DNA of 64,000 nucleotides from a virus (IMGVR_UViG_3300045918_000470:1-64000); one strand, 5' to 3'. Positions 62,060 through 63,738 are shown, counted from the first letter of the stretch. Notes: a model not told the origin generated them from the sequence alone. Translations and numbers: made by a program.

Positions 62060-62140
62060 TGTTGTTTGTAGTATAATAGTTATTACAGGAGAGAACAGTG
62101 GACACTCCAGATACGGTGCAATTCCGTCGAGCGACAACCA
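62060..62140 (+). ncRNA. tRNA-like RNA with aberrant anticodon arm
   Basis: 9-bp acceptor, D arm, GGAG-13nt-CTCC, 4-bp T stem, ACCA end. Confidence 0.6.
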
Positions 62141-62393: not shown

Positions 62394-62564
62394 ATGTGTA
62401 ACACAAGCAGCAACGTACAAAATGTTAATGTCAATGTATTAAATCGCAATAGCGTGCTCCGTGCTAGTCAACTGAATTTGGCAGGGTTAAGCTTAGGGCA
62501 AAATCAAGCAGTTCAAAGTTGGTTAAATACTTCTAATTCTCTTTTACAGAATACTTCAATCTAA
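62394..62564 (+). CDS. Putative leader (attenuator) peptide of tRNA operon 2, 56 aa
   Basis: AAGGAG RBS; MCNTSSNVQNVNVNVLNRNSVLRASQLNLAGLSLGQNQAVQSWLNTSNSLLQNTSI; rich in N, L, S, Q and V. Confidence 0.8.
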   Translation: MCNTSSNVQNVNVNVLNRNSVLRASQLNLAGLSLGQNQAVQSWLNTSNSLLQNTSI

Positions 62565-62598
62565 GTTTTCTTTAAAGGGGATTTAGTTCCCCTTTAAA
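62533..62598 (+). promoter_or_regulatory. Mutually exclusive hairpins (putative attenuator 2)
   Basis: TTTAAAGGGGA/TCCCCTTTAAA versus CTAATTCTCTTTTA/TAAAGGGGATTTAG (13 of 14 paired). Confidence 0.65.
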
Positions 62599-62672
62599 TG
62601 ATAAACAAAAACCAATCATTTAAAACACTAAATTCTCTATTGTTAATTCAATTTTTTCTTAGAATTCTCAGT

Positions 62673-62760
62673 TCTCTACAGCGCGCAAGGTGTGCGAGGC
62701 GACTGTTAATCGTTTGGCGAGAGTTAAATCCGATGCTTGGTTCGATTCCAAGGTGGAGAG
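62673..62760 (+). tRNA. tRNA-Asn(GUU), long extra arm, no encoded CCA
   Basis: GGCGA-CTGTTAA-TCGTT; TTCGATT loop; U1-A72, G73. Confidence 0.8.
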
Positions 62761-62794
62761 CTGAGAATTCAAGAAATCTATTAGATAACTTCGC

Positions 62795-62867
62795 TCAAGA
62801 GTAGGCAAACTGGTATGCCAACGGTCTTTGAAGCCGTAGATTGTAGGTTCGAACCCTGCCTCTTGAG
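62795..62867 (+). tRNA. tRNA-Gln(UUG), no encoded CCA
   Basis: ACGGT-CTTTGAA-GCCGT; TTCGAAC loop; U1-A72, G73. Confidence 0.87.
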
Positions 62868-62934
62868 CGAAGTTATCTATTTAGAATATAGGACGTATTA
62901 CTTTGAAAATGATAAATAAAGTATATATTTATCT

Positions 62935-63738
62935 AGGAACTACACTTTACATTATGATAACTTAATCAATAGAGCTAAAGAAAGAACTCTTGAAAGTTAC
63001 ACCGAATCTCATCATATAATACCACGTTGTTTAGGTGGTACAAATGATAAAGATAATTTAGTTGACTTAACAACAAGAGAACATTTTATAGCTCATTTGT
63101 TATTGTGGAAGATACATCCTAATCATTATGGTTTAGTTAAAGCTATTTCTATAATGTGTGTTCAATCTACTAATATGAACGAAAATCGTTCTTGTAATAG
63201 AATGTATGGATGGTTAAAGGAAAAATTTTCAGAAGCTCAATCTTTATCTCAATCGGGTGATGGTAATAGTCAATTCGGTACTATGTGGATTCATAATTTA
63301 GATTTAAAAGAGTCTAAGAAGATACCTAAATCTGATGAAATACCTTTAGGATGGAATAAAGGTCGTAAAATTAAATTCGATCTTGAAAATATAAAGAAAG
63401 AAATTAAAGATCAAATCAAAGAGAGAAACAAAAATAAACTTGAAGAAAAACTTCAAGAAAAGAGAAATTCTTTCCTAGATATATTTGAAGCTTATAAAGC
63501 TTATGGATACAAATATGTTATTGAAAATTTTGATTATGATAAATCTGAAGGTGTTTTATATTCAAAATTGAAAACTCTTTTTGGAGAATTTAAAAAACAA
63601 TATGAAGTGAAAATTGATAGATTTTATATTTGTCAAGAATGTAAATGTACCTTCACGAAAAAAGGGAAGTCTACAGATAATTTTAAATGTTGTAGTAGAA
63701 AATGTTCTGGTTTATTGAATAGACCGAAATTTGGATAA
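62935..63738 (+). CDS. HNH homing endonuclease; expected start codon reads AGG
   Basis: Frame open upstream of the track start 63097: (R)NYTLHYDNLINRAKER..ESHHIIPRCLGGTNDKDNLVDLTTREHFIAHLLL. Confidence 0.8.
   Translation, partial: RNYTLHYDNLINRAKERTLESYTESHHIIPRCLGGTNDKDNLVDLTTREHFIAHLLLWKIHPNHYGLVKAISIMCVQSTNMNENRSCNRMYGWLKEKFSEAQSLSQSGDGNSQFGTMWIHNLDLKESKKIPKSDEIPLGWNKGRKIKFDLENIKKEIKDQIKERNKNKLEEKLQEKRNSFLDIFEAYKAYGYKYVIENFDYDKSEGVLYSKLKTLFGEFKKQYEVKIDRFYICQECKCTFTKKGKSTDNFKCCSRKCSGLLNRPKFG

Follow-up and report, generated by a model that had tools for sequence, protein, structure and literature searches.

Long leader-trailer helices seal an Asn-like tRNA and a tRNA-Gln in a T4-like phage and may act as rRNA-like processing stalks

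The window, the whole stretch of 64,000 nucleotides that was analysed (IMGVR_UViG_3300045918_000470:1-64000), belongs to a 77.8-kb IMG/VR contig that is ~55% complete and derives from a T4-like phage with 32% G+C. Genes for a portal, a prohead protease, a scaffold and a gp23-type capsid lie at 51-56 kb of the window; the capsid has 48-49% identity to the capsids of Campylobacter and Vibrio T4-like phages (48% for the Campylobacter phages) and 80% identity to those of two relatives in IMG/VR, G001 and G003. DNA of the window was found in wetland, vent, sediment and mat metagenomes, with no RNA run listed among the matching sequencing runs. Among GenBank phages we found no homologue of the region, with matches limited to a tRNA body and the HNH gene described below, and four DNA sequencing runs yielded contigs that were identical or of the G001 type and no new variants of the helices that are the subject of this report.

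The tRNA region of the contig starts at 61.6 kb and ends at 74 kb. Within it, ARAGORN identified a tRNA-Asn(gtt) of 89 nt at 62673-62761 and a tRNA-Gln(ttg) at 62795-62868, both on the + strand. Taken from position 1 to G73, the two bodies span 62673-62760 and 62795-62867, and they are the sole well-formed genes of the cluster without a CCA end; every other well-formed tRNA gene (8 in the window and 8 ARAGORN calls beyond it) encodes CCA, and the only other CCA-less call is a dubious Phe(aaa). An 81-nt tRNA-like sequence with a CCA end at 62060-62140 was called by ARAGORN as His(gtg) at relaxed thresholds only and had no match to the Rfam tRNA model.

Just 5' of the Asn-like RNA, at 62394-62598 (+ strand), lie a leader ORF of 56 codons (12 Asn, 9 Leu, 9 Ser and 6 Gln) and, after the ORF, an 11-bp hairpin. 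Both are kept in G001, whose version of the ORF is equally Asn-rich, and together they look like a leader-peptide attenuator. On the other side of the pair, an HNH homing-endonuclease frame (62920-63738, + strand; phrog_655, E 3.6e-52) separates the tRNA-Gln from a tRNA-Leu(UAA); in G001 these two tRNA genes adjoin, with Leu(UAA) 9 nt after Gln. The HNH frame is open from 62920, yet its first ATG, GTG or TTG is at 63097, and an ATG at 62910 with a plausible N-terminus (MINKVYIYL) is in a different frame. A frameshift, gene decay or a mistake in assembly could explain the sequence at 62910-63738. An intact second HNH copy is present at contig 64566-65339.

The leader and trailer of the Asn-like gene form a closing helix that continues the acceptor stem. 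Its 5' strand (62655-62672, + strand) runs from a distal TTTCTT (62655-62660) through a bulged A62661 into a proximal stretch of 11 nt (62662-62672), and its 3' strand (62760-62776, + strand) consists of G73, C74, then TGAGAATTC and AAGAAA, without CCA. The sequence at 62662-62679 pairs with 62753-62770 as an inverted repeat of 18 nt in which both imperfect positions are G.U, and beyond the bulged A the distal TTTCTT pairs with the AAGAAA at 62771-62776, giving an extension of 11(+6) bp beyond the acceptor stem. The 3' end of the tRNA is itself part of the helix, with U62672 paired to G73 and G62671 paired to C74; behind a U1-A72 pair it reads GCTG, not CCA. The body has a weak 7-bp acceptor stem (UCUCUAC/GUGGAGA), a D stem of 5-6 bp with a loop of 3-5 nt, an anticodon stem with two G.U pairs and the loop CUGUUAA, a variable region of 21 nt, and a 5-bp T stem with the T loop TTCGATT. 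In the minimum free energy (MFE) fold of the body, the variable region alternatively pairs with the 3' anticodon strand.

The Asn-like gene had no match to the Rfam tRNA model (RF00005) at the 29 bits that we required of a canonical tRNA, even when searched at E≤10. Its best Rfam match was tRNA-Sec (RF01852), at 28.8 bits against a threshold of 47, in an alignment in which the acceptor stem counts 9 bp, the D and anticodon stems count 6 bp each, the D loop is tiny and the variable region is long. We rejected an identity as tRNA-Sec or allo-tRNA on the basis of this score, of the 5-bp T stem, of which the outer two pairs covary, and of the helix, which runs at least 11 bp further. The anticodon loop, U1-A72, G73 and the T loop are those of tRNA-Asn. 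The gene also has the features by which we recognized a long-arm phage tRNA-Asn(GUU): GUU in a 7-nt loop, U33, A37, U1-A72, G73, a variable region of >10 nt and a phage context.

A second tRNA-Asn(GUU) of 73 nt lies just beyond the window, at contig 64258-64333 (L004 6259-6334). It has U1-A72, G73 and an encoded CCA; its T loop is odd (GGCGGAA), it scored 40.9 bits in Rfam, and it was missed by ARAGORN. Close to it, at contig 64337-64424 (L004 6338-6425), is a tRNA body with a GCA anticodon loop and without a normal acceptor stem; it aligned to positions 6-65 only of the Rfam model (33.4 bits) and is surrounded by an imperfect, interrupted inverted repeat, and it is a candidate for a further tRNA-like RNA closed by a stem.

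The closing helix of the tRNA-Gln is formed by a 5' strand at 62782-62794 (+ strand; TAGATAACTTCGC), an arm that is single-copy in the contig and its relatives, and a 3' strand at 62867-62879 (+ strand; GCGAAGTTATCTA), again without CCA. The inverted repeat, 62782-62801 with 62860-62879, covers 20 nt and is 100% complementary, corresponding to 7 bp of acceptor stem and 13 bp of extension. C62794 pairs with G73 and G62793 with C74, and the 3' end behind U1-A72 reads GCGA, not CCA. The body is a canonical cloverleaf that scored 62.9 bits against RF00005, above the 29 bits required, with a weak acceptor stem (UCAAGAG/CUCUUGA). It is the only Gln gene seen in the contig.

The two hairpins lie 5 nt apart, and their folding z-scores are -6.1 (Asn) and -8.2 (Gln), with no equally stable fold among 200 shuffles. 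We found no terminator-like site, defined as a G+C-rich stem followed by a U run, at either hairpin (trailers AAGAAATC and TTTAGAAT), and we therefore rejected an intrinsic-terminator reading of both. We likewise rejected an identity as Y RNA or YrlA, as the contig has no TROVE (Ro60) gene and no Y RNA family was among the Rfam matches. An earlier note on this DNA had described the missing CCA, a perfect 20-bp helix for Gln, ~17 bp of added helix for Asn, abutting hairpins, U1-A72 with G73 on both tRNAs, and an unusual extra arm in the Asn gene, and this anatomy is borne out. One point is to be corrected in that picture: with the G73-CCA gene at contig 64258-64333, the Asn-like gene is not the phage's sole Asn gene.

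Several other observations concern the remainder of the contig. At 69.8-70.1 and 74.5-74.7 kb (L004 11790-12136 and 16545-16712) are RNAs closed by stems of 21-23 bp, each with AUACAGCAA after the 5' strand and one with a T-arm-like hairpin inside; these are not of the same kind as the two sealed tRNAs. The tRNA region also encodes, at contig 65612-66070 (L004 7613-8071), a YkuK/DUF458 RNase H-like protein (PF04308, E 3.5e-18), which occurs at the same place in G001 and G003 with 72% identity. We considered this protein as a required partner of sealing and rejected it, since it is absent from the phage contigs G005-G009, among which are phages with sealed tRNAs. At the contig end (75767-77795; L004 17768-19796), a stand-alone class II glutamine-amidotransferase-like ORF (209 aa) is followed by ORFs of 107 aa and 154 aa, neither with an NCBIfam match, and then by QueC. 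This neighborhood suggests a 7-deazaguanine (preQ0-type) pathway, and we rejected the amidotransferase-like ORF as a tRNA amidotransferase because it adjoins QueC and more likely belongs to that pathway.

The Asn-like gene recurs in G001, in G003 and in a short metagenome contig, L048; scans of IMG/VR with exact patterns found it in G001 and G003 only, and two 17-mer matches in IMG/VR were rejected as chance matches in protein-coding sequence. We aligned the three distinct sequences (window, G001 and L048) to a structure written down by hand. The flanks outside the helix are unalignable, yet they always pair. All 33 pairs of the structure, including the four helices of the body, are 100% paired in the three lineages, and 10 of them are changed on both sides: 5 of the 11 pairs of the proximal extension, 2 acceptor pairs, 1 D pair and 2 T pairs, with none broken. 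None of 500 shuffles reached this statistic, and sliding the partner columns by 1-3 positions reduced pairing to 37-56%. The pairs U(-1).G73 and G(-2)-C74 are constant across the alignment, and a 42-nt stretch with the D and anticodon arms is invariant, in contrast to the covarying acceptor and T stems. Every pair that is not Watson-Crick is a G.U on the + strand, with no A.C, so that selection on the structure acts in the transcript rather than in the DNA. The closing helix of the Asn-like gene is a selected RNA structure, and the test named in the earlier note, covariation of the flanking stems in related phages, came out in its favor for this gene: complementarity is kept by compensatory changes rather than lost in homologues.

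The Gln stalk has a different history. In its interior (62800-62863) the gene has 86% identity to the tRNA-Gln of G001, which is normal and bears CCA, and the acceptor stem and stalk have nothing in common with that gene. Similarity to G001 on the upstream side stops at 62782, the first stalk base, and this end point, together with the HNH insertion, suggests that the stalk arose with the rearrangement that removed the downstream tRNA neighbor. Exact-pattern scans of IMG/VR with the Gln body identified only the normal tRNA-Gln of G001 and G003, and a scan with the anticodon arm of a sealed tRNA-Gln from another phage (G005, below) identified only that phage's own contigs. Neither scan found a further stalk-bearing homologue of the Gln genes. 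The window's Gln stalk is a single sequence made up of Watson-Crick pairs, with no G.U, and the evidence for selection at the RNA level comes from the Asn-like stalk.

We measured the uninterrupted leader-trailer extension for each tRNA called by ARAGORN in the contig, its relatives, T4, the metagenome loci described below, a Vibrio phage, a roseophage and two more phage contigs (~230 tRNAs surveyed). In a de-duplicated set of 206 tRNAs, the extension was 0-2 bp in 199 and 11-13 bp in six; the remaining one has 5+4 bp with a mismatch between them. The six long closures, four of exactly 13 bp and two of 11 bp, are those of the window's Asn-like gene, its homologues in G001 and L048, the window's Gln gene, and an Asn gene and a Gln(UUG) gene in G005. 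No sealed tRNA was found in T4, the roseophage DSS3_MAL1 or the Vibrio phage phiKT1024. Closures of at least 10 bp among the ~230 tRNAs were thus confined to Gln(UUG) and to Asn(GUU), the latter in three unrelated families if the 5+4 bp around one mismatch in G009 is counted.

G005, an unrelated phage whose Asn locus is also L039, seals its long-arm tRNA-Asn by 13 bp; here the full CCA is encoded and paired to a leader UGG, and TTTTTT follows. Its Gln(UUG) gene (86 nt; Rfam tRNA score 66.9 bits) has an 11-bp closure, U73 and no CCA, and its Gln(CUG) gene is ordinary and unsealed. The earlier note's pairing of Asn with Gln finds support in this phage. Between the two sealed genes of G005 (L054 4975-6000) are an HNH-motif ORF and a cytidine/dCMP-deaminase-like ORF. 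In G009, a contig of 223 kb with 38 tRNA calls, only the sealed long-arm Asn combines closure with the absence of CCA, and both Gln genes are ordinary. The Gln gene of G001 is also ordinary; the unsealed Gln genes of G001 and G009 end in A73-CCA, and G001 and G003 carry the sealed Asn-like RNA alongside a normal tRNA-Asn with CCA and a normal tRNA-Gln with CCA. C74 and the G(-2):C74 pair are invariant in all sealed genes.

The Asn cases came from an Asn-directed search, so the Asn count is biased; the two Gln cases did not, and the rough chance that both sealed non-Asn tRNAs would be Gln(UUG) is 0.002. The Asn/Gln bias of sealing is real. Sealed genes often stand at array boundaries: the Asn-like gene is the first after the leader in the window and in G001, the sealed Asn of G009 is the first in its array, that of L039 is solitary between ORFs, and the window's Gln is followed by mRNA. 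However, the sealed gene of L048 is internal to its array and many boundary tRNAs in the surveyed arrays are unsealed, so position alone does not explain sealing.

When metagenomes were scanned for a T loop separated by a long gap from a GUU anticodon arm, 15 loci (L037-L051) matched, most of them tRNA arrays in which a long-variable-arm tRNA(GUU) is the sole Asn gene. The gene of one of them, L038, is allo-tRNA-like, its acceptor, T and D stems measuring 8, 4 and 6 bp. The same pattern was absent from 185,579 prokaryote species, each represented by one genome. On the strength of these two sequence searches, long-arm Asn tRNAs are a feature of phages or mobile elements. We found no paper on long-arm phage tRNA-Asn(GUU).

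As the best explanation of these observations, we propose tentatively, at a probability that we put a little short of even, that the sealed tRNAs carry rRNA-like leader-trailer stalks that an RNase III-type enzyme cuts at the mature ends or close to them, after which the CCA end is completed. The leader and trailer would pair into a stalk that continues the acceptor stem, a design like that around 16S and 23S rRNA. Such a stalk would block the usual route, in which RNase P must unwind any extension of the acceptor stem; for bacterial RNase P such an extension is an anti-determinant, two extra pairs costing ~10-fold (PMC10731613), and a stalk of 11-13 bp should therefore bar this route. Instead, the stalk would present a two-turn helix to an RNase III-type endonuclease, either of the host or of the part of the phage outside the contig; neither an RNase III gene nor a gene for a CCA-adding enzyme was found in the ~55%-complete contig. 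An idealized E. coli RNase III substrate has 22 bp, is two-fold symmetric about staggered cuts that leave 2-nt 3' overhangs, and has a distal box ~11 bp from the target (PMC3867540). The sealed tRNAs have a comparable geometry of about two turns, with 11(+6) bp (Asn) and 13 bp (Gln) on one side of the presumed target and the 12-bp stack of acceptor and T stems on the other.

Counted together, the 12-bp acceptor/T stack and a stalk of 11-13 bp would form a helix of 23-25 bp with its midpoint at the junction of the 1:72 and -1:73 pairs. If RNase III made a staggered cut there, the 5'-phosphate would lie at position 1 or close to it and the 3'-OH at C74 or close to it, and the product would lack only C75 and A76; any residue would be trimmed, and the CCA-adding enzyme of the host would complete the end. 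Positions 73-74 of both tRNAs are paired to the leader, CCA is not encoded, and C74 is kept. Cleavage at the midpoint would account for the constancy of C74, for pairing that begins at -1:73 and for the recurrence of the same stalk lengths, and the invariant C74, together with the CCA encoded in L039, leads us to expect a real 3' end. The enzyme, the cut sites and the order of the steps are inferred from the geometry of the helix. Two stalks depart from the 13-bp rule, that of the window's Asn (11 bp, a bulge and 6 bp) and that of G009 (5+4 bp). The ends of a sealed tRNA would be set independently of neighboring tRNAs, which fits positions at array boundaries next to a leader or an mRNA. The processing model does not explain the Asn/Gln bias. 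A role of RNase III in the maturation of T4 tRNAs reportedly concerns tRNA-Gln, the first gene of the T4 cluster. That E. coli RNase III takes part in T4 tRNA maturation is documented (PMC4810235).

Other readings account for part of the evidence. The stalk might merely hold together the ends of two weakly closed tRNAs and shield them from exonucleases, to be opened by ordinary enzymes (RNase E/G, RNase P, RNase Z/BN, helicases) with no dedicated double-strand cut. Both acceptor stems are indeed weak, with U1-A72 and runs rich in A/U and G.U, and the Asn-like body is non-canonical and has the alternative variable-region pairing in its MFE fold. In T4, where 4 of 8 tRNA genes lack CCA, maturation of the tRNAs from these genes relies on 3' enzymes of the host and on CCA addition. 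However, 13-bp stalks with several G-C pairs far exceed the 2 bp that slow RNase P, and the recurrence of 11-13 bp suggests that a substrate is being measured and not that stability alone matters, which leaves this reading unlikely. We consider it still less probable that the sealed hairpins are end products, serving as unchargeable decoys or sponges for a host factor such as a nuclease, or as a store freed on a signal. An ordinary Asn(GUU) with CCA accompanies the sealed one in G001, G003 and the window's contig, so the two are not redundant, and the D and anticodon arms are invariant beside covarying acceptor and T stems. In E. coli, moreover, U1-A72 with G73 is common only to Asn and Gln, and toxins of the CdiA-CT EC869 class read that end (PMC9071432). 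Against an end product are the invariant C74 and the complete CCA in the L039 stalk, which would be pointless if the RNA were never opened; the window's Gln body, a normal tRNA close to a working-type homologue and the contig's one visible Gln gene; and the Asn-rich leader ORF, which suggests a link to decoding. A more elaborate proposal, and a quite improbable one, is that sealing is an isoacceptor-specific device: a private RNase III-only route would bypass RNase P and hide the acceptor end of Asn(GUU) and Gln(UUG), which have the weak U1-A72 pair and G73 in common, because this end is attacked or gated by the host or by a host defense nuclease of the type that cuts just these two tRNAs at 71/72. 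A shortage of Asn-tRNA would then turn on the array through the Asn-rich leader ORF. A toxin class is known that cuts just tRNA-Asn and tRNA-Gln at 71/72 (PMC9071432), which offers another, equally speculative motive for special handling of the pair by phages; a paper on the PARIS defense system (PMC11464382) makes no mention of tRNA-Asn.

The earlier note had proposed a special maturation route and had tied it to indirect charging of Asn and Gln tRNAs by GatCAB in a host without AsnRS and GlnRS. The first part of the proposal, a double-strand-specific cut followed by trimming and CCA addition, is the best fit to the anatomy and covariation; the second part fares poorly, and we regard it as very unlikely. 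The confinement of sealing to Asn(GUU) and Gln(UUG), with the rough chance given above, the U1-A72 pair on all sealed tRNAs, and a phage whose capsid resembles those of Campylobacter phages and whose DNA occurs in wetland, vent, sediment and mat metagenomes would all suit it. However, U1-A72 and G73 form the normal Asn/Gln acceptor end, present also in E. coli, which has both AsnRS and GlnRS (PMC9071432), and no transamidation step is known to need a closed precursor. The distribution of sealing also speaks against it: the Gln genes of G001 and G009 are unsealed with A73-CCA, the sealed Gln of G005 has U73, G001 and G003 combine the sealed Asn-like RNA with normal Asn and Gln genes bearing CCA, and G009 seals only Asn. 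No tRNA amidotransferase was found, the glutamine-amidotransferase-like ORF at the contig end being adjacent to QueC. Lower still in probability is the reading that the helices are palindromes of the DNA with no function as RNA, which homing-endonuclease traffic or a mobile tRNA cassette left behind or makes use of. It draws on the coincidence of the Gln stalk with a rearrangement, where similarity to G001 stops and an HNH gene follows, on the HNH ORF between the sealed genes of G005, and on the perfect Watson-Crick pairing of the Gln stalk. The G.U-only imperfections and the compensatory changes exclude it for the Asn-like gene; furthermore, the stalk arms are unique and not repeated elements, no fragments of a disrupted resident tRNA were seen beside either sealed gene, and the sealed Asn genes of G001 and G009 have no adjacent endonuclease gene. 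A DNA-level event could thus account at most for the origin of the Gln stalk.

In textbook bacterial tRNA maturation, RNase P acts first, at a single-stranded leader; here, selection keeps a helix that should block RNase P, which suggests that bacteria and their viruses have a second way into tRNA maturation, one that resembles that of rRNA. The restriction to Asn(GUU) and Gln(UUG) across unrelated phages suggests that these tRNAs are in some way special in infection, be it through the acceptor end that they have in common, the amide nature of their amino acids or a nuclease directed at them. Sealed genes are missed or mis-scored by tRNA models, as illustrated by the Asn-like gene and the Rfam tRNA model, and sealed precursors would escape standard tRNA-seq. 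We found no paper on leader-trailer closure of bacterial or phage tRNA genes; by analogy, the novelty would lie in the application of rRNA-type processing stems, a known design, to selected tRNAs.

Compared with known systems, the Asn-like RNA resembles tRNA-Sec and allo-tRNA (PMC5389517; RF01852) in its long D stem with a small loop, 6-bp anticodon stem, long variable region and possible 9-bp acceptor reading, but it differs in its GUU anticodon, in a helix that extends far beyond 9 bp and in having no free discriminator-CCA. It shares GUU, U1-A72, G73, a long variable region and an occurrence in phage or metagenomic arrays with other long-arm phage tRNA-Asn(GUU); however, 8 of the 12 listed are without closure, and in the type found in the window the D arm resembles that of tRNA-Sec and the variable region pairs poorly. 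Certain pre-tRNAs of E. coli, whose leaders G(-2)G(-1) or G(-2)U(-1) pair with RCC (PMC10731613), start with the same two pairs, Y(-1):G73 and G(-2):C74; their extension is 2 bp, their encoded CCA is used and they are still RNase P substrates, whereas the sealed tRNAs extend over 11-17 bp without CCA. The T4 cluster (L029; PMC4810235) is alike in being a T4-like tRNA array that is broken by a homing-endonuclease gene and contains some CCA-less genes, with host processing and CCA addition, but its tRNAs are without leader-trailer closure (extension ≤1 bp); rnaC and rnaD of T4, considered as analogues, were rejected because they have different folds and no closure. The leader-trailer helices of rRNA, which are cut by RNase III (PMC10250234, PMC3867540), share with the sealed tRNAs a long helix that starts from the mature ends, a two-turn length and conservation of pairing rather than of sequence, the pairing being kept by compensatory change in the Asn-like gene as well. 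In the sealed tRNAs, by contrast, the helix, a predicted rather than a demonstrated target of cleavage, encloses a single tRNA, stacks coaxially with its acceptor stem and is confined to certain isoacceptors.
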